From positions 1 to 61,441 of the IMG/VR virus record IMGVR_UViG_3300020463_000022: 61,441 nucleotides of DNA. One strand, given 5' to 3'. The notes under the pieces were generated by a model. The model had not been told where the DNA came from, did not search any database, and saw only the letters and a list, made by a program, of their open reading frames with translations. Source of the stretch: a virus. Its lineage: Duplodnaviria > Caudoviricetes. Every line of letters starts with the position of its first letter. The first letter of the stretch is position 1. Of this stretch, positions 34,049 through 61,441 are shown in pieces. A program made the position numbers and the translations under genes.

Positions 34049-35011
34049 ATGAAATATAGATCAGGATACAGAAAAGTTAAAACTCTAAGGAAGTATGTTA
34101 ATGGAAAGCCTACCAACATAACTAAAGCTAATGTGGCTTCAGACACTGATTATATCGAAAAATATTTGTCTGACGAATGCCCCGTTAATACGCTTCCATC
34201 TGGGATAACTGTTACCCCAACAACGCCATCTACTCAGGCATACAAGAATCCAACAGTTACTGGTTCAAACAACTATACGGTAAGCTTTAGTGAGTATGTG
34301 AATGGATGGACATCGTTTCACTCATGGATACCAGAGTCTATGGTTAATATGAATGGGGATTTTTTCACATTTAAAAGCGGTCAGCTGTATAAACATCATG
34401 CAAATGACGCCAACAGGAACAACTTTTATGGAGTGACCTATCCATCCGAACTTGAATTTGTCACAAACACTGCTCCATCAGAAAGAAAAATATTTAAAAC
34501 AGTCGAAATAGAAGGGGATACAAAAAATTGGGATGTGACTGTAATTACAGACCAAGACAGCGGACATGTAAGTAAAGCATCTTTTAGCGAACAAGAAGGG
34601 GTGTATAGAACATACATAAGAAGAAACTCTGCTGACATTGGAAACACAGAGCTCTTGTCTGTTCAAGGTATTGGCATGGCTTTAGTTGTTTCTGGCAATA
34701 ATTATACATTTGGTGAGGTTCCCTCTGAGGTTTCTGTTGGAGACTCACTATTTAAAGCAACATCCTCAGGCACATATCAATTAGTAGGAACAATATCCAC
34801 GGTAACACCTGGAGCCTCAAATACGGTTGTGGCTACGTCTGCTTCGGCAATTACCCCGTCTGTAAATGATTTTATGTTTGCTGCAAAATCTCCAGTAGCC
34901 GAATCATATGGACTAAAAGGATATTTTGCAAAAGTTAAGATATCAAATACAAGCACCTCAAAGGTTGAGGTATACGCAGTGAACACGGAAGCAGCGAAAA
35001 GCTTCCCCTAA
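34049..35011 (+). CDS. Tail protein resembling the C-terminal part of the stabilization protein
   Basis: YTVSFSEYVNGWTSFHSWIPE...RNNFYG...KIFKTVEIEG...GLKGYF. Confidence 0.65.
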   Translation: MKYRSGYRKVKTLRKYVNGKPTNITKANVASDTDYIEKYLSDECPVNTLPSGITVTPTTPSTQAYKNPTVTGSNNYTVSFSEYVNGWTSFHSWIPESMVNMNGDFFTFKSGQLYKHHANDANRNNFYGVTYPSELEFVTNTAPSERKIFKTVEIEGDTKNWDVTVITDQDSGHVSKASFSEQEGVYRTYIRRNSADIGNTELLSVQGIGMALVVSGNNYTFGEVPSEVSVGDSLFKATSSGTYQLVGTISTVTPGASNTVVATSASAITPSVNDFMFAAKSPVAESYGLKGYFAKVKISNTSTSKVEVYAVNTEAAKSFP

Positions 35012-55852: not shown

Positions 55853-56182
55853 CTAATTATCTGATTGTTTCTTATGGGCATAGTCACACGCATCGTTATA
55901 CAGGTTTCTATTGACCTTATAGACAAAATCAACAAAGTAGTTATTCCATTCTACCTGTGATTCAAGTTCAGCGTTCTGTTCTTGCAATCTTTCCTCATCG
56001 TATGCATCAGAAGATTTTGACCCATCGTCTTGATTCATTATATCTAAATCATCCGCATCAGCTTGTGCCATCCACTCTTCATCTGTCCACCTTTCACAAT
56101 TTGGATTGTCAATATGAAACCCTCCGAGATTCATATAAAATTCCTTAATTAACGAAACCTTTTTACTCATAATTTTACTCAT
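55853..56182 (-). CDS. Acidic early protein
   Basis: 109 aa, D/E-rich. Preceded by a hammerhead substrate site. Confidence 0.7.
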   Translation of the reverse strand: MSKIMSKKVSLIKEFYMNLGGFHIDNPNCERWTDEEWMAQADADDLDIMNQDDGSKSSDAYDEERLQEQNAELESQVEWNNYFVDFVYKVNRNLYNDACDYAHKKQSDN

Positions 56183-56191
56183 AACTTTTAA

Positions 56192-56230
56192 TTTTAAGAT
56201 TAATAATAGACGTTATATAATACTATATAA
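56192..56230 (-). promoter_or_regulatory. Hammerhead substrate site 7 (C17 = 56209)
   Basis: UUAUAUA-GUAU-UAUAUAA-CGUC/UAUUAUUAAUCUUAAAA. Confidence 0.75.
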
Positions 56231-56262
56231 AAAAAGGGACGATCTTTCGCCCCCTCTTTTTT
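56229..56262 (-). terminator. Terminator-like hairpin plus U-tract
   Basis: AAAAAAGAGGGGGCGAAAGAUCGUCCC-U7 on the - strand. Confidence 0.6.
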
Positions 56263-56278
56263 CCGCTATCTTCCTATA

Positions 56279-56461
56279 TTATGTGGAAGATGTGTCCCAT
56301 ACCTTGAAGTTAAATTTTTGCTTGTCTGATTTGTTTTGGTATTTACCAAGTACGTCAAACAATGCATCAAGACATTCTCCATCGGTCATTTCATCGCCAT
56401 CTGTAGTGACAACCTTAGACACGTCATTAAATAGATTTACAAATTCTTTTTCCCAGTTCAT
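56279..56461 (-). CDS. Early hypothetical protein
   Basis: 60 aa, ATGA overlap. Confidence 0.65.
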   Translation of the reverse strand: MNWEKEFVNLFNDVSKVVTTDGDEMTDGECLDALFDVLGKYQNKSDKQKFNFKVWDTSST

Positions 56462-56697
56462 AGCGTAGGTATTACTTCTTGTTTCTTTTTTCCAAAGTAG
56501 TAGTACGCCCCTCCATCATTGCCCTCATCATCTGATTGAGACAATATTGCAGTTCCATCTGTAAATTCAATAAGTAATGGGTTTTTATACCAGTAATCTC
56601 CCATTTCTTTTTTTGTAAGATATCTTACATGACTTATAGTTTTACCTACAAGTAATTTTCTTGCGTGGTTTTGCCACTTAATTTCTGTTTTACTCAT
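56458..56697 (-). CDS. Early hypothetical protein (SDDEGNDGG)
   Basis: Likely start is MSKTEIKW at 56697, not 56805. Confidence 0.7.
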   Translation of the reverse strand: MSKTEIKWQNHARKLLVGKTISHVRYLTKKEMGDYWYKNPLLIEFTDGTAILSQSDDEGNDGGAYYYFGKKKQEVIPTL

Positions 56698-56706
56698 AAT
56701 ATTTAA

Positions 56707-56750
56707 TTTAAGATTAATAATAGACGTTGAGGGATAGTCTCCTACCCCTC
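56707..56750 (-). promoter_or_regulatory. Hammerhead substrate site 6 (C17 = 56723)
   Basis: GAGGGGUAG-GAGA-CUAUCCCUC-AACGUC/UAUUAUUAAUCUUAAA. Confidence 0.78.
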
Positions 56751-56755
56751 TCGTT

Positions 56756-57022
56756 TTAATTTCCTTCAGCAAACTGAACGAAATCATCTTGATATGAATT
56801 CTCAAGATAGTTTTTTAACTTGGGCATTGTTGTCTTAACGTGCCTAGCTAAATATTTAAATGATTCTCTTTTACTTGGCTCTTTAATTTCTAAAGAACCA
56901 TTTTCGTCAAAGTAAAAATTAAGATTTAAGTTAGTCATCTCTTCGTTTACTTTATGTGTTATCCATATTGACACCAACTGATTATCGTGGTCAAAGGATG
57001 TACTAAATTTTGAATGTAACAT
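56756..57022 (-). CDS. Early hypothetical protein
   Basis: 88 aa. Confidence 0.65.
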   Translation of the reverse strand: MLHSKFSTSFDHDNQLVSIWITHKVNEEMTNLNLNFYFDENGSLEIKEPSKRESFKYLARHVKTTMPKLKNYLENSYQDDFVQFAEGN

Positions 57023-57023
57023 A

Positions 57024-57224
57024 TTATTGGATTTTAAAAATTATACTCTCTACTATCTTGTTCGTTGAAGAATCAAATAAATCTTCTTCTACATGCTTTA
57101 TCCGATGAACATCAGAATCCTCATGGAATCTAAAGTTAACATCTACATCTTCCAAAGTTCTGTTGTTTAATTTTAAATCTTTTTCTATCCTTGATAGAAA
57201 TCTTTTTATTTCACTTGCTTTCAT
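57024..57224 (-). CDS. Early hypothetical protein
   Basis: 66 aa. Confidence 0.7.
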   Translation of the reverse strand: MKASEIKRFLSRIEKDLKLNNRTLEDVDVNFRFHEDSDVHRIKHVEEDLFDSSTNKIVESIIFKIQ

Positions 57225-57233
57225 AATATTAAA

Positions 57234-57272
57234 TTTTAAAATTAGTAATAGACGTTATATAATATTATATAA
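57234..57272 (-). promoter_or_regulatory. Hammerhead substrate site 5 (C17 = 57251)
   Basis: UUAUAUA-AUAU-UAUAUAA-CGUC/UAUUACUAAUUUUAAAA. Confidence 0.75.
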
Positions 57273-57303
57273 AAAAATGAGAGGTAGAAAAATCTACCCC
57301 CCA
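57271..57303 (-). terminator. Terminator-like hairpin plus U-tract
   Basis: UGGGGGGUAGA-UUUU-UCUACCUCUCA-U7. Confidence 0.65.
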
Positions 57304-57317
57304 TCTGAAAAACTAAT

Positions 57318-57827
57318 CTAATCGCTAATATTGATATTAAGTTTCCACCACTCAACATCTCTTCTTGTGTAGGAGGGATGTCGACTAGGAGATACATAAA
57401 CCTTTCTACCAACCCATTTATTTAAATCTAAATAAGAGTAAAAGATTTGAATTGAAAGAGGTATTTCTTTTAAACCCCTGTTGGTTGCCATAGCAAGTCT
57501 TGATAAAGAATGCCAATCCATCCTTGCTTTGACCATTTCAGATTTCCACCCCAAATCATTGCAAAAATCTAAAGCATACTTGTCACACCTAAATTCAGCC
57601 AAACAACTTGGTTTGATTCTTTGGTCTATTATGTGTTTAATTTCGTGTAGACAAACAAAAAATCTATCAAGATTATTTGGACGTGGAATTTTGATTTCTC
57701 TTTGTTTAAAGTATGCTCTTCCACAGGATGTTACCGACCACTTTTTTAATTTAATGTTGTGTTCGTTCATCAGTGATTCAATAATCTGATGTGCATCTTT
57801 ACGATTGAATCTTTTTTTGTATTTCAT
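57318..57827 (-). CDS. SprT-like/zincin metalloprotein
   Basis: CGRAY...I.I...FVCLHEIKH...AEFRCD. Confidence 0.7.
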   Translation of the reverse strand: MKYKKRFNRKDAHQIIESLMNEHNIKLKKWSVTSCGRAYFKQREIKIPRPNNLDRFFVCLHEIKHIIDQRIKPSCLAEFRCDKYALDFCNDLGWKSEMVKARMDWHSLSRLAMATNRGLKEIPLSIQIFYSYLDLNKWVGRKVYVSPSRHPSYTRRDVEWWKLNINISD

Positions 57828-57836
57828 ATAATATTA

Positions 57837-57880
57837 TTTAAAGTTAGTAATAGACGTTGGAGGGAAATACATCCCTCCAA
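57837..57880 (-). promoter_or_regulatory. Hammerhead substrate site 4 (C17 = 57853)
   Basis: UUGGAGGGA-UGUAUU-UCCCUCCAA-CGUC/UAUUACUAACUUUAAA. Confidence 0.8.
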
Positions 57881-57885
57881 TCATA

Positions 57886-58848
57886 TTAAACAAAAACTCT
57901 TCCTAAACCATTGTCAGCAGTAACCTTGCCACCCAATCCTGTGGATTTTTGTGCAACGATATTACTAAACTGGTTGAAGATAGATTGGTCAAGTCTTTGA
58001 AGACTACCAGTCAATTTAGACTCTTGTCTTGAATTCTCTGACCCTCCTTTGTGTGTGCTATAATGCGTAACACCACTAAATAAACCCCATAGTGTTTTAC
58101 CCTTATAACTCATTTCTTCAGCGACTGACTTTGTGACTTTCTCACAAATATTAATCTTCCTTGTACTATACTTATCTTGGGCAATAGCCATAGAAAGTTT
58201 AGTATCAACTCCACTAATTTTTTCAATCACTTTTTGTGCAAAGGAATCATCAATCTCAATGTTTGCCATCTTATTAAAAGTCTCATACAAGCTTGTATCA
58301 GACTCTTCAAGATTTTCCAATGCTCTTAATGATACATCGATTAGTCTCCTCATATTGCTCGTATGACGTGCAGAGGATTCTAATGATTTTTTCATTGCTG
58401 AGAATTGATTGTCACATGAAATTGTAACTCCAGTAGTACCCCATCTTAATGAGGTGCTACCATCATGAGAATTAATAGCGGTTGCATAACGCTTTATTGT
58501 ATCTTGACCAACTTTGAGCGGTTCCAGTTCCAACTGCATTACAACTCTTCGACCTCCTTTGAAAATCTGCCCTTGAGTTATTGGTTTCCCAATTACATCG
58601 CCGACATTCAAAACAAGTTCGGCGAGTTCAGAATTTTGGAATATTTCGTATTGATCAGAAAATGCACCAAAACAATCTTTGTTATCCAAACGTACAGCAC
58701 CATAAAAATTGGTGTTGAATGTTTCAATTCCGTGATTGAATTGTAATGGTTTTTTCTCTACTTTCCAATTCATACCAAATTTGTCCAAAGTATTTTCTAC
58801 TTCTGACTTGCTAATAAACTCTTGATTTTTTGTAATAGAATTTTTCAT
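57886..58848 (-). CDS. DUF932/DUF945-like phage/plasmid protein
   Basis: W.VEK.PL...Y.IFQN...GGRRV...NSHDGS...CDNQ...TLWGLFSGVT.Y..H. Confidence 0.85.
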   Translation of the reverse strand: MKNSITKNQEFISKSEVENTLDKFGMNWKVEKKPLQFNHGIETFNTNFYGAVRLDNKDCFGAFSDQYEIFQNSELAELVLNVGDVIGKPITQGQIFKGGRRVVMQLELEPLKVGQDTIKRYATAINSHDGSTSLRWGTTGVTISCDNQFSAMKKSLESSARHTSNMRRLIDVSLRALENLEESDTSLYETFNKMANIEIDDSFAQKVIEKISGVDTKLSMAIAQDKYSTRKINICEKVTKSVAEEMSYKGKTLWGLFSGVTHYSTHKGGSENSRQESKLTGSLQRLDQSIFNQFSNIVAQKSTGLGGKVTADNGLGRVFV

Positions 58849-58857
58849 TTTATATAA

Positions 58858-58901
58858 TTTTAAGATTAGTAATAGACGTTGGGAGGTTTAACCCCTCCCA
58901 A
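58858..58901 (-). promoter_or_regulatory. Hammerhead substrate site 3 (C17 = 58875)
   Basis: UUGGGAGG-GGUUAAA-CCUCCCAA-CGUC/UAUUACUAAUCUUAAAA. Confidence 0.8.
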
Positions 58902-58916
58902 TCACAAACAAATCAA

Positions 58917-59249
58917 TCAAGAAACTTTTGCTGATTTTCGCTTTGTAAAATGTAACAATAACGTGCTACATAGTAGTCCTGATAAAGAATCCTGATCTAA
59001 TGCATCAACTAATATTTTGTCAAAAGTAAAATCAATTAAATGCAGTTTATCATCTTTAATGTAAAATGAAAATTCATCTTCCCAATCATTGTCTTCATAG
59101 ATTGCTGTAATTTCAAATGAATTTACGTCTACCTGTTTTACCTTGACTGATGATGTTTTGTCTCCAGCTAGTTCTAAGGCTATAGCTAGTGTTTGACTTA
59201 CTTTTTTAGCAATAATTAACGTTTCAGTAATTGTGTACATAGTGTTCAT
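58917..59249 (-). CDS. Early hypothetical protein
   Basis: 110 aa. Confidence 0.7.
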   Translation of the reverse strand: MNTMYTITETLIIAKKVSQTLAIALELAGDKTSSVKVKQVDVNSFEITAIYEDNDWEDEFSFYIKDDKLHLIDFTFDKILVDALDQDSLSGLLCSTLLLHFTKRKSAKVS

Positions 59250-59259
59250 AATATTTAAG

Positions 59260-59300
59260 TTAAGATTAGTAATAGACGTTGGAGGGATTGCTCCCTCCGA
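59260..59300 (-). promoter_or_regulatory. Hammerhead substrate site 2 (C17 = 59275)
   Basis: GGAGGGA-GCAA-UCCCUCC-AACGUC/UAUUACUAAUCUUAA. Confidence 0.8.
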
Positions 59301-59306
59301 CCATAA

Positions 59307-59672
59307 TTAAATAGAATCTTCTACTCTATCAAGTAATTCAGAAAGTTCGATTAAATCACTTGGTTTGTATACTCCTGATTCGTGTAAATCAGTCATAAGT
59401 CTGTCATACCAGTAACCATCAAACAAACCGAATAACATATTTGTCATTTCAGATTGGTAATCCTTGGTTGTTCTATCAGCTGATTGGATCATGTTCAATA
59501 CCAATGTCCTGTCATCCCCTGAAAAAATTTCGTGCCTGTCAAATCTTCTGTGGGTATACTCTTTCGTTGGATTCATATGTTTTTGAATCGTTCGAAGATA
59601 ACCAGTATGGGTGTTAGACTGCATTTTTTCCATTTTTTCAAACCATCTGTTGTTTAAACTATTTAAGTTCAT
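59307..59672 (-). CDS. First early gene, hypothetical
   Basis: 121 aa. Its AUG lies 27 nt after the ribozyme cleavage site. Confidence 0.72.
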   Translation of the reverse strand: MNLNSLNNRWFEKMEKMQSNTHTGYLRTIQKHMNPTKEYTHRRFDRHEIFSGDDRTLVLNMIQSADRTTKDYQSEMTNMLFGLFDGYWYDRLMTDLHESGVYKPSDLIELSELLDRVEDSI

Positions 59673-59692
59673 TTTAATTAAATTTTAAGATT

Positions 59693-59828
59693 AGTAATAG
59701 ACGCAGAGGTAATAATACCTCTTTGCCAACGTTTCGACCTACCGATGTTTCACAACATTGGAATGAAAGAAACTAAACGCTCAAATCTAAGGTCTCGTCA
59801 GCATTACTCGATCTGATTAGCTTTCATC
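59693..59828 (-). ncRNA. Type I hammerhead ribozyme
   Basis: Minus strand reads AGUAAUG-CUGACGA-GACCU-[49 nt]-AGGUC-GAAA-CG...AGAGGUA/UACCUCU...CGUC/UAUUACU. All core nucleotides are present (C3-A9, G10.1-C11.1, G12-A15.1, GUC17). Predicted cleavage is between 59700 and 59699. Confidence 0.9.
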
Positions 59829-59849
59829 AATCTTTAAATATATATGTAT

Positions 59850-60050
59850 AGACGGCATTTAGCCGTAGTCCCTGTCTCCAACTGGAGGAGGATGTAGTCA
59901 ACATTGGGAGCGAGCGCTCGACCACCATGCCTATTTTGGCAATCGTTGATAAGAAGTCTGAGTGTGTGTCTCACAACTCTTGGGCTGTTAACCTGACTGC
60001 TTCTCTTCAGCCGTCTTCAGTAATCTACAGGTAAGCACCCGTCCAAAAGA
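59850..60050 (-). ncRNA. Putative structured RNA domain upstream of the hammerhead
   Basis: GC-enriched with no listed ORF. Nested helices AGACGGC/GCCGUCU, UCAACgAUUG/CAAUGUUGA, UGCC/GGCA, CUCCA/UGGAG and GAGU-UGUG/CACA-C-ACUC. Confidence 0.5.
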
Positions 60051-60054
60051 CAAC

Positions 60055-60086
60055 CAAATATATATATAAGGTTCGAATCTACCAAA
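60055..60086 (-). promoter_or_regulatory. Early promoter TTTG-N20-TATATTTG
   Basis: Perfect Bacteroidota -33/-7 consensus; predicted TSS near 60050. Confidence 0.8.
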
Positions 60087-60456
60087 CCACAATGATATTA
60101 TTTTACATTGTTGGTACATGGGCATCTTGTATTATACGCTCTCCAGTTAACGACCTTTAATTTGTAACTACCTTATATTCAGTTAGATAAAATTCTACAT
60201 GACTTTACTTTACTGATCTTATAGTAGTAGTGTAGTGTGATTATCACTTAGTGTAACTTAGTTGGTATTAGGGTTATTGTCTTACAACTAGTATTACTTG
60301 ATAGTTGTTCTAATAGGGTCGTATATCGTAACAAAAAGGTAAAAACTTTGTGTAACTGGATACTAAAACATAGGTGCAGTAGGTCTGACAAACCACTTTT
60401 CTGTGTGCGTGTGCGTTCTATATTATATATATAACCCAAATACTCAATATTTCTAG

Positions 60457-60530
60457 TGTGGCGTAAAAATGTATCATTTAAGTGTATTATATATATAGTG
60501 TGCAGCTAAATGATACAAAAACCCGCCACA
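60457..60530. repeat. Interrupted inverted repeat around a TA tract
   Basis: TGTGGCG..TGTATCATTTA-[26 nt]-TAAATGATACA..CGCCACA. Confidence 0.75.
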
Positions 60531-60548
60531 TGTTTCTTATATTCTTCT

Positions 60549-60556
60549 TATCTTTG
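60549..60556 (+). promoter_or_regulatory. -7 box TATCTTTG
   Basis: 22 nt before the ATG at 60579, at the head of the + strand operon. Confidence 0.6.
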
Positions 60557-60578
60557 TATCAAATAAAAGCTCTGTTAA

Positions 60579-60731
60579 ATGATCAATATAGTTATACAAC
60601 CTCCATACGCTCTTATGGTAGGTTTAGAAGGCGTTGTAAACGAAGAAAAAAAGGTTTCTGGAGTTATAATTCATCTATTATTAGTTTCGATAGAATACAA
60701 TTGGGATAATGGTGAGTCAATTTCTATTTGA
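60579..60731 (+). CDS. Small hypothetical protein (50 aa)
   Basis: MINIVIQPPYALMVGLEG..., read directly from the sequence. Confidence 0.55.
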   Translation: MINIVIQPPYALMVGLEGVVNEEKKVSGVIIHLLLVSIEYNWDNGESISI

Positions 60732-61223: not shown

Positions 61224-61441
61224 ATGATAGAAAAAAACATAGACTTCCATGATGATGCCAAGTCGTCTTTAATAAATGGAATCAATAAAGTTGCTGATGC
61301 TGTAAGCTCTACACTTGGAGCGGCCGGTACGACTGTTATACTAGAGGATCAAACCGGTAGACCTCACATAACTAAAGACGGGGTTACCGTTGCAAAAACA
61401 ATAAACTTATCAGATCCAGTAGAACACCTTGCGGCAGAGAT
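61224..61441 (+). CDS. groEL: GroEL 5' part (continues at nt 1)
   Basis: MIEKNIDFHDDAKSSLINGINKVADAVSSTLGAAGTTVIL...ITKDGVTVAK. Confidence 0.95.
   Translation, partial: MIEKNIDFHDDAKSSLINGINKVADAVSSTLGAAGTTVILEDQTGRPHITKDGVTVAKTINLSDPVEHLAAE
61327..61441. repeat. Terminal overlap, copy 2
   Basis: Matches 1-115 with 2 mismatches. Confidence 0.95.

Follow-up and report, generated by a model that had tools for sequence, protein, structure and literature searches.

A hammerhead ribozyme motif with an extended stem I/loop II pairing and recurrent substrate-like cassettes ahead of the early genes of a Caudoviricetes virus

The hammerhead and its setting

The window analysed here is the whole of the IMG/VR virus record IMGVR_UViG_3300020463_000022 (61,441 bases, 99% complete; Caudoviricetes), and the subject of this report is a hammerhead ribozyme motif on its minus strand, together with copies of the motif's substrate half that recur ahead of six further early genes. 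The hammerhead lies within about 1 kb of non-coding sequence (59673-60708), which divides rightward genes from a leftward block of early and replication genes including those for DUF932, Rad52-like, HNH, and Toprim-primase proteins. The Toprim-primase is nearest to primases of Flavobacterium phages, with about 60% amino-acid identity, and the host of the phage probably belongs to the Flavobacteriia. A GroEL-like chaperonin gene (Cpn60_TCP1, E 9e-57) on the plus strand starts at 61224 and resumes at 3-1490, and because it is split across the record ends the record is circularly permuted; no transfer RNA genes were found in the window. The element is assigned to the type I hammerheads and placed in the 5′ leader of a minus-strand early operon, the first gene of which has its start codon at 59672, 27 nucleotides (nt) past the predicted cut.

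Read directly on the minus strand, every invariant position of the hammerhead core is present and the three stems all form, stem I being open and the other two closed (Table 1). A first-pass annotation, made from the letters of the window alone, had proposed a hammerhead at this place, and the core, the three stems, the A15.1-U16.1 pair, and C17 were all recovered. Stem Ia comprises 7 base pairs (bp), of which the core-adjacent 1.1-2.1 pair is a wobble (G59802.U59699), as had been pointed out beforehand. Stem Ib, on the far side of a 20-nt bulge, is also predicted by the minimum-free-energy (MFE) folds of four relatives (L003, L108, L005, and L004), and its AGAUU occurs upstream in 12/12 hammerhead relatives, the search pattern having demanded only the 3′ AATCT. 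Given a 5-bp stem II, loop II measures 49 nt (59789-59741), the length originally assigned to it. The sub-hairpin described within this loop (59761-59742) is present, though 7/8 positions pair and one A.C mismatch is left; it is capped by GUGA, a loop of the GNRA type. With type I hammerheads (RF00163), the window's copy shares the core, the three stems, of which stem I is open, and C17 following the CGU strand of stem III; it differs from them in its 49-nt loop II, its 20-nt stem I bulge, and a bulged, extended stem III.

Relatives were gathered by protein and pattern searches, and the same element was found in five other viral contigs and in several metagenome contigs. The search patterns required CGTC, seven unspecified letters, and AATCT or AAYYT. 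With a pattern for the 3′ half, 5/7 loci in viral contigs were true, metagenome contigs returned 106 loci, and 0/55 loci in bacterial and archaeal genome contigs were true; a filter applied to 124 loci and the window kept 28 loci plus the window, 25/28 of them true, L046, L071, and L088 being rejected as chance matches. Fixing stem II as in the window gave 2 matches, both unrelated, and a pattern for the leader RNA upstream of the hammerhead returned from viral contigs the same contigs and L129, where the locus is severed at the contig end. In a phage collection, blastn found no match to the 1.4-kb intergenic region, and the 5 matches to the minimal L005 hammerhead (97 nt) were at chance level, none being a relative; no cultured phage bearing the hammerhead-cassette system was found in this way.

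In 12/12 relatives the core is intact, and all three stems covary, with pair 10.2-11.2 of stem II being A-U or U-A and pair 15.4-16.4 of stem III being U.G or U-A. The position of the motif just before the first early gene is conserved, and the gene that follows it differs between relatives. Three architectures can be distinguished, namely a minimal one whose loop II has 6 nt and which lacks the long pseudoknot (L005, L033, L075, and L124), one with a long loop II that pairs with the upstream strand (window, L004, L036, L008/L009, and L092), and one in which an insertion of about 40 nt, folding into two hairpins, separates CUGAUGA from stem II (L003 and L108). In L003 (2369-2486) and L108 (241-357), the insertion precedes a stem II of the form GAACC-loop-GGUC, and one of its hairpins covaries (GGAG/CUCC versus GGUG/CACC). 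We know of no described hammerhead with an insertion of about 40 nt at the A9/G10.1 junction.

Table 1. Features of the hammerhead, its leader, and the cassettes. Positions are those of the window unless a relative is named; the slash marks the predicted cut, and the CGUC of cassettes 2 to 7 starts at the higher coordinate.
Feature	Sequence or pairing	Position	Strand	Remarks
Promoter-like pair	TTTG (60086-60083), 20-nt spacer, TATATTTG (60062-60055)	60055..60086	minus	conserved in relatives
Structured 5′ leader RNA	about 210 nt, five conserved hairpins, invariant single-stranded CUGUAGAUUACU	59836..60044	minus	8-sequence comparison
Leader RNA copy in L004		2124-2371
Leader RNA copy in L003		2155-2361
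Leader RNA copy in L005		1284-1480
Stem Ib, enzyme strand	AAGAUU, complementary to AAUCUU 59692-59687	59829..59834	minus
Pseudoknot strand	AUGAAAG, CUAA, UCAGAUC (18 paired nt of the stem I bulge)	59810..59827	minus
Stem Ia, enzyme strand	AGUAAUG, pairs with UAUUACU 59699-59693	59802..59808	minus	covaries across three relative classes
Core C3-A9	CUGACGA	59795..59801	minus
Stem II	GACCU 59794-59790 with AGGUC 59740-59736	59736..59794	minus	encloses 49-nt loop II
Core G12 A13 A14	GAA	59733..59735	minus
Stem III	ACGU 59732-59729 with GCGU 59704-59701; 6-nt bulge UGGCAA; hairpin 59722-59705	59700..59735	minus
A15.1-U16.1 pair	A59732-U59701	59732, 59701	minus
C17	C	59700	minus	predicted cut between 59700 and 59699
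Cis substrate 13-mer	UAUUACU AAUCUU	59687..59699	minus	3′ strands of stems Ia and Ib
Cassette 2	hairpin, AA, CGUC/UAUUACUAAUCUU	59262..59278	minus	without hammerhead core
Cassette 3	17-mer as in cassette 2	58862..58878	minus
Cassette 4	CGUC/UAUUACU AACUUU	57840..57856	minus
Cassette 5	CGUC/UAUUACU AAUUUU	57238..57254	minus	after terminator-like hairpin and U-run
Cassette 6	CGUC/UAUUAUU AAUCUU	56710..56726	minus	C-to-U leaves G.U with enzyme
Cassette 7	CGUC/UAUUAUU AAUCUU	56196..56212	minus

Pairing between the stem I bulge and loop II

The strand that pairs with loop II (59828-59809) had been read in the first-pass annotation as a 5′ extension of the enzyme; since stem Ib (59834-59829 with 59692-59687) flanks it, it is no free tail but a bulge of 20 nt on the 5′ side of stem I. 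The same stem I position is occupied in minimal relatives by a bulge of about 3 nt, and the contact between bulge and loop II is an enlarged form of the known stem I/loop II interaction. Single G linkers at 59828 and 59809 border the pairing strand, the three segments of which were found placed and ordered as claimed. They form a distal helix of 7 Watson-Crick pairs (AUGAAAG 59827-59821 with CUUUCAU 59769-59763), a middle helix of 4 pairs (CUAA 59820-59817 with UUAG 59776-59773), and a proximal helix of 7 pairs including one G.U (UCAGAUC 59816-59810 with GAUUUGA 59787-59781), with loop-side bulges of 4 nt (GCGU) and 3 nt (UUU) between the segments. Both partners of this contact of about 18 bp belong to the enzyme strand, in agreement with the earlier description; the pairing uses no nucleotide of stems I, II, or III and is separated from stem Ia by 1 nt and from stem II by 2-4 nt.

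Comparison of the pseudoknot type was based on an alignment of 6 sequences, 5 of them distinct, in which 96% of the pseudoknot cells are paired, versus 31-44% after the 3′ partners are slid by 1-3 columns. Both sides change at 4/7 pairs of the proximal helix, 94% of its cells pair, and it occurs in three versions (UCAGAUC/GAUUUGA, UCAAACC/GGUUUGA, and, in L092, GGAGU/ACUCC). The distal helix is invariant save for one A-U to G-U change, and the middle helix does not vary among the 4 sequences that have it and is missing from L092, where a hairpin of the bulge strand stands in for these 4 bp and AUGAAAGG/CCUUUCAU is retained. The unpaired bulge nucleotides of the loop vary between GCGU and GCAU, and between UUU, UAG, and UAA. 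Covariation in homologues, which had been named as a check on the pairing, is therefore found in the proximal helix and not in the distal and middle ones, which show no compensatory change. The predicted energy of the bulge/loop II duplex in the window is -14.1 kcal/mol, a value matched in 47/2000 loop and 96/2000 bulge dinucleotide shuffles; the corresponding counts of 2000 in relatives (loop, bulge) were 1 and 1 for L004, 6 and 14 for L036, 4 and 14 for L008, and 49 and 59 for L092. The nested MFE folds of L004 and L092 also select the bulge/loop helices. Taken as an alignment-based result, the core-proximal helix is supported as real by its covariation.

Several points speak against accepting the full contact as drawn. 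In the window considered by itself, the pairing is modestly beyond chance and weak evidence alone, and the pseudoknot type is represented by only 5 distinct sequences, all close relatives. The outer 11 bp (distal and middle helices) are backed by conservation, including the retention in L092, and lack the compensatory changes of the proximal helix. Moreover, 1-nt linkers join the bulge at either end to the Ia/Ib junction, loop II is likewise anchored at both its ends on stem II, and in L004 the far end of the 18-bp helix is tied to stem II by only 3 nt; with linkers as short as in L004-type relatives, a straight 18-bp helix is sterically impossible. We infer that the 7+4+7-bp contact would be bent into a compact module with its two 7-bp helices side by side, a model which the three-way junction of L092 fits.

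In the two lineages with a loop II sub-hairpin (window and L092), its loop is of the GNRA type (GUGA or GAGA) and the A.C mismatch recurs, which hints at a further tertiary contact. A local hairpin within the bulge, present in the MFE fold of the window, was rejected as L004 and L092 do not keep it.

Substrate-like cassettes ahead of the early genes

The substrate half of the hammerhead, composed of a hairpin, CGUC, a 7-mer, AAUCU, and a start codon about 26 nt further on, recurs ahead of six further early genes. Searched at no more than 2 mismatches, TATTACTAATCTT gave 7 minus-strand matches between 56.2 and 59.7 kb, and CGTC precedes 7/7 of them, though absent from the query. Each of the six extra cassettes is intergenic and follows a hairpin, with the next start codon 25-26 nt further on. 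When both strands were scanned for CUGANGA, a stem II of 3 bp or more, and GAAA, 3 candidates emerged, of which only the one at 59801 has the remaining hammerhead features; the core-like motifs at 34769 and 28560 are antisense to long open reading frames, have none of the other features, and were rejected. The window holds one enzyme and seven substrates, one in cis and six without a core of their own.

Five other records contain 5-9 cassettes each, directly downstream of a single hammerhead and on the same strand, and in the six records together 45/45 cassettes pair with the stem Ia strand of their own record. The match extends over 7/7 positions, or over 6/7 in the G003 class, the cis site of which has the same score. 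The 7-mer UAUUACU faces an enzyme strand AGUAAU(G/A) in the window, G002, G004, and G005, AUAUACU faces AGUAUAU in G001 (8/8 sites), and UUAUAUU faces CAUAUAA in G003 (5/5 sites). Among all 45 sites, the sole variant within the 7-mer is a C-to-U change opposite G, by which a wobble is kept, stem Ib pairs at 5-6 of 6 positions, and a 5-10-bp hairpin ends 0-3 nt ahead of CGUC, while ATG follows the cut at 25-27 nt in 43 sites and at 31 nt in the other 2. Since the hairpin sequences and ATG spacers differ among cassettes, the 16-17-nt cassette core has been kept by selection and not by recent duplication. In the enzyme strand of stem III, ACGUUGG (59732-59726) can make 6-7 contiguous pairs with the trans cassettes of the window versus 4 with its own cis strand, and in L003 (G001) the enzyme reads ACGUA and UACGU is found at the cis site and at 5/7 trans sites, a joint change at 15.5/16.5.

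Two cassettes of the window (57254-57300 and 56212-56260, minus strand) are without the usual GGAGGG-type hairpin, which is replaced by a G+C-rich, terminator-like hairpin with a U-run or by an A+U-rich palindrome (UUAUAUA..UAUAUAA). The early region may comprise several transcription units, in which case only an enzyme acting in trans could reach the cassettes that follow such hairpins.

Possible action in trans, known systems, and the upstream leader

The elements that recognize the substrate and the tertiary brace all lie on the enzyme strand, and the substrate half recurs before six genes, which led us to propose that the RNA released by self-cleavage also cleaves in trans. All cleavage considered here, in cis or in trans, and its effects on messenger RNA (mRNA) ends are predictions from sequence; a look for RNA sequencing runs that contain this stretch found none. 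The Watson-Crick pairing of bulge and loop II would hold stems I and II side by side, and self-cleavage after C59700, as expected from hammerhead chemistry, would yield a 5′ product made of leader plus ribozyme with a 2′,3′-cyclic phosphate end, and a 3′ product, the first early mRNA, with a 5′-OH and a 27-nt leader. The released RNA would next bind other cassettes via stems Ia and Ib (13 bp), a trans stem III of 4-7 bp would stack on each cassette's own hairpin, and the six downstream cassettes would be cut too, turning the early operon into monocistronic mRNAs with uniform 25-27-nt 5′-OH leaders and hairpin-capped 3′ ends. We see an even chance that a single released enzyme also cuts many matched sites in trans, as the sequence matches suggest. 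The more complete picture of a natural guide-like trans hammerhead, prefolded by its pseudoknot, reading a 13-nt tag plus CGUC before every early gene, and co-evolving with its targets in the 7-mer, is put forward tentatively, at slightly less than even odds. The first-pass annotation had seen in the self-contained contact what a trans-acting ribozyme would need; the six coreless cassettes and the 45/45 matches favor trans action, but the long pseudoknot is an elaboration and no requirement of the multi-site arrangement, because minimal relatives have the same cassette arrays.

It may be asked whether the locus encodes an active ribozyme at all, as opposed to a conserved leader structure with another role or a chance resemblance. 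The whole window gave 0 Rfam matches at gathering thresholds, its hammerhead staying below that of RF00163, a search of 59400-60200 at E up to 10 returned only chance-level TUG1_1 and snoR4a and no hammerhead, and the window-only shuffle test is weak, all of which count against a ribozyme. The miss is likely due to the large loop II and the stem III insertions, however, and the minimal relatives L005 (40.6 bits) and L075 (35.3 bits), which align with the window hammerhead in an equivalent context, exceed the Hammerhead_1 (RF00163) gathering score of 34, so that membership of the family is secure by homology. In view of this, of the intact core and covarying stems of the relatives, and of the conserved place before the first early gene, an inactive motif is highly improbable. 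It is also conceivable that the bulge/loop II pairing is an alternative or regulatory fold, acting as a trap or switch that delays or gates stems Ia and II, rather than an activating contact. The nested MFE folds of L004 and L092 do form these helices in place of stems Ia and II, minimal relatives manage without the long pairing, and 18 bp, which the short linkers would not accommodate as a straight helix, far exceeds the 4-6 bp of the pseudoknots described in PMC3088659. We regard this explanation as unlikely, given that the pairing shares no nucleotide with stems I-III and hence does not compete with them in sequence, that its position relative to stems Ia and II mirrors that of known activating pseudoknots, and that the covarying helix is the one next to the core.

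More weight must be given to the possibility that the ribozyme acts in cis only and trims the leader off the first early mRNA, the cassettes being conserved for other reasons and the enzyme's own site being one homogenised repeat copy; we consider this a real alternative, though a less probable one. The cassettes could then be a shared 5′-untranslated-region or translation-initiation element, a protein binding or cutting site, or a repeat for module exchange, and the near-constant spacing to the ATG (25-27 nt in 43/45 sites) is what a translation-initiation element would show. Contigs of related phages from runs X1, X2, X4, and X5, which are of unrecorded library type and were compared over 56100-60100 of the window, jump from one cassette to another and omit whole early genes in between (57880 to 58859, 59298 to 59684, 57321 to 57824, and 57024 to 57227), which implies that cassettes mark borders of exchangeable gene modules and act as recombination joints. 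A match between enzyme and cassettes could arise without any function in trans, if cassettes are uniform for another reason and the enzyme tracks the first copy, and the invariance of the CGTC and AATCT letters in relatives is partly by construction, because the search patterns required them. With stem III closed in cis by a hairpin, a point which the first-pass annotation had left out of account, the enzyme would keep its own 3′ tail (GCGUC), in competition with incoming substrates, each of which would need to displace it. The trans stem III is only 4-5 bp in G002 and L004-type phages, and many cassette hairpins take in the AA beside CGUC, which competes with a longer trans stem III; as the hairpins absorb the AA, only 3-5 bp of trans stem III, stacked on the cassette hairpin, can be counted on. 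Finally, natural hammerheads all act in cis in the portions of two reviews that were available (PMC6765202, PMC6155905). These considerations weigh against action in trans. Several features, on the other hand, count against a purely cis-acting ribozyme. The conserved part of the cassette is exactly a hammerhead substrate (CGU, C17, and both 3′ strands of stem I), whereas hairpins and spacers vary, and the sole 7-mer variant retains a G.U pair with the enzyme. The enzyme of the window has longer contiguous pairing with the trans cassettes than with its own cis strand, and the tertiary brace is confined to the enzyme strand. Each cassette has all recognition elements, and an additional mechanism would be needed for it to escape trans cleavage.

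The structure is a variant of a known hammerhead kind. All three hammerhead types include members in which stems I and II are joined by a pseudoknot of 4-6 bp, and fast cleavage at 0.5 mM Mg2+ depends on such pairing (PMC3088659). The window's hammerhead resembles these pseudoknot-stabilised ones (Perreault et al. 2011, PMC3088659; structure PMC11300833) in that Watson-Crick pairing near the stem tops keeps stems I and II parallel, and differs from the described examples in that the pairing extends to at most 18 bp in three segments and joins a stem I bulge to loop II, both on the enzyme strand, instead of linking a loop to a tail or to a second loop over 4-6 bp. A further difference is the loop II sub-hairpin with a GNRA-type loop in two lineages. 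Even if the ribozyme acts in cis only, an 18-bp bulge/loop contact would to our knowledge be the longest stem I/stem II pseudoknot reported for the class.

A viral precedent for the location is the hammerhead HHphage of haloviruses HF1 and HF2, which lies 13 nt before the first early gene, with a mapped transcript 5′ end no more than 3 nt from the cleavage site (PMC3088659). Both hammerheads sit just upstream of the first gene of an early polycistronic transcript, at 13 nt there and 27 nt here; HHphage belongs to an archaeal virus and is a core-insertion variant, and the accessible part of PMC3088659 reports no repeated substrate cassettes for it. Enzyme and substrate are far apart on one transcript in the discontinuous hammerhead of mammalian Clec2 3′ untranslated regions (Martick et al. 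2008, via PMC6155905 and PMC6765202), which in the excerpts available is of type III, has a very long helix I and one substrate per enzyme, and is eukaryotic. The phage arrangement, by comparison, joins one enzyme to one adjacent substrate and five to eight distant ones. Small nucleolytic, self-cleaving ribozymes are described as cis-acting in the same excerpts, and the Clec2 case prompted a hunt for trans-cleaving ones (PMC6765202, PMC6155905). Engineered trans hammerheads with tertiary motifs (PMC1199579, PMC6412130), as far as the available text describes them, likewise carry the stem I/loop II contact in the ribozyme strand and cut linear substrates at low Mg2+; they are artificial, and the phage hammerhead, known here from sequence, would be a natural counterpart.

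If the phage hammerhead does cleave in trans, it would be a natural answer to the engineering problem of keeping tertiary contacts inside a trans-cleaving ribozyme, and its role would be the processing of operon mRNAs independently of host RNases. RNase P RNA, another natural ribozyme with many trans substrates, which present a helix beside the cut, is different in fold and chemistry; it works by hydrolysis that leaves a 5′ phosphate, has a protein cofactor, is not phage-encoded, and does not recognize its targets by a guide sequence. It is mentioned in PMC6765202. No natural hammerhead with several separate substrates was found in the literature searched, which covered few subscription journals and main texts without supplements. 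The one-enzyme, many-substrate organisation would be new only if confirmed, as a new mode of action for the hammerhead class and its first natural multi-site member, and a locus where a single enzyme meets at least six matched targets, with three specificity classes found in nature, makes the question of trans action testable. As the enzyme would end in a C17 cyclic phosphate and each processed mRNA would start with a 5′-OH and the same tag, it is further conceivable that any early mRNA could be rejoined with the leader by the reverse reaction, in the manner of spliced-leader addition but run by a ribozyme.

Upstream of the hammerhead, the promoter-like pair of Table 1 has the form TTTG, a 20-nt spacer, and TAnnTTTG (60086-60055), which corresponds to the Bacteroidota promoter type. 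The structured leader RNA lies between this site and the hammerhead, which it accompanies in all relatives; its 28 consensus pairs include 10 with compensatory changes among 8 sequences, and 59836-60044 matched no Rfam family. It may stabilise the released ribozyme RNA or aid target finding. The leader motif GUAGAUUACU was considered as a second substrate or pseudo-substrate for stem Ia and rejected, being unchanged in the L005 class despite a different stem Ia. Six bases of the invariant motif CUGUAGAUUACU, AGAUUA, are complementary to the cassette sequence UAAUCU.

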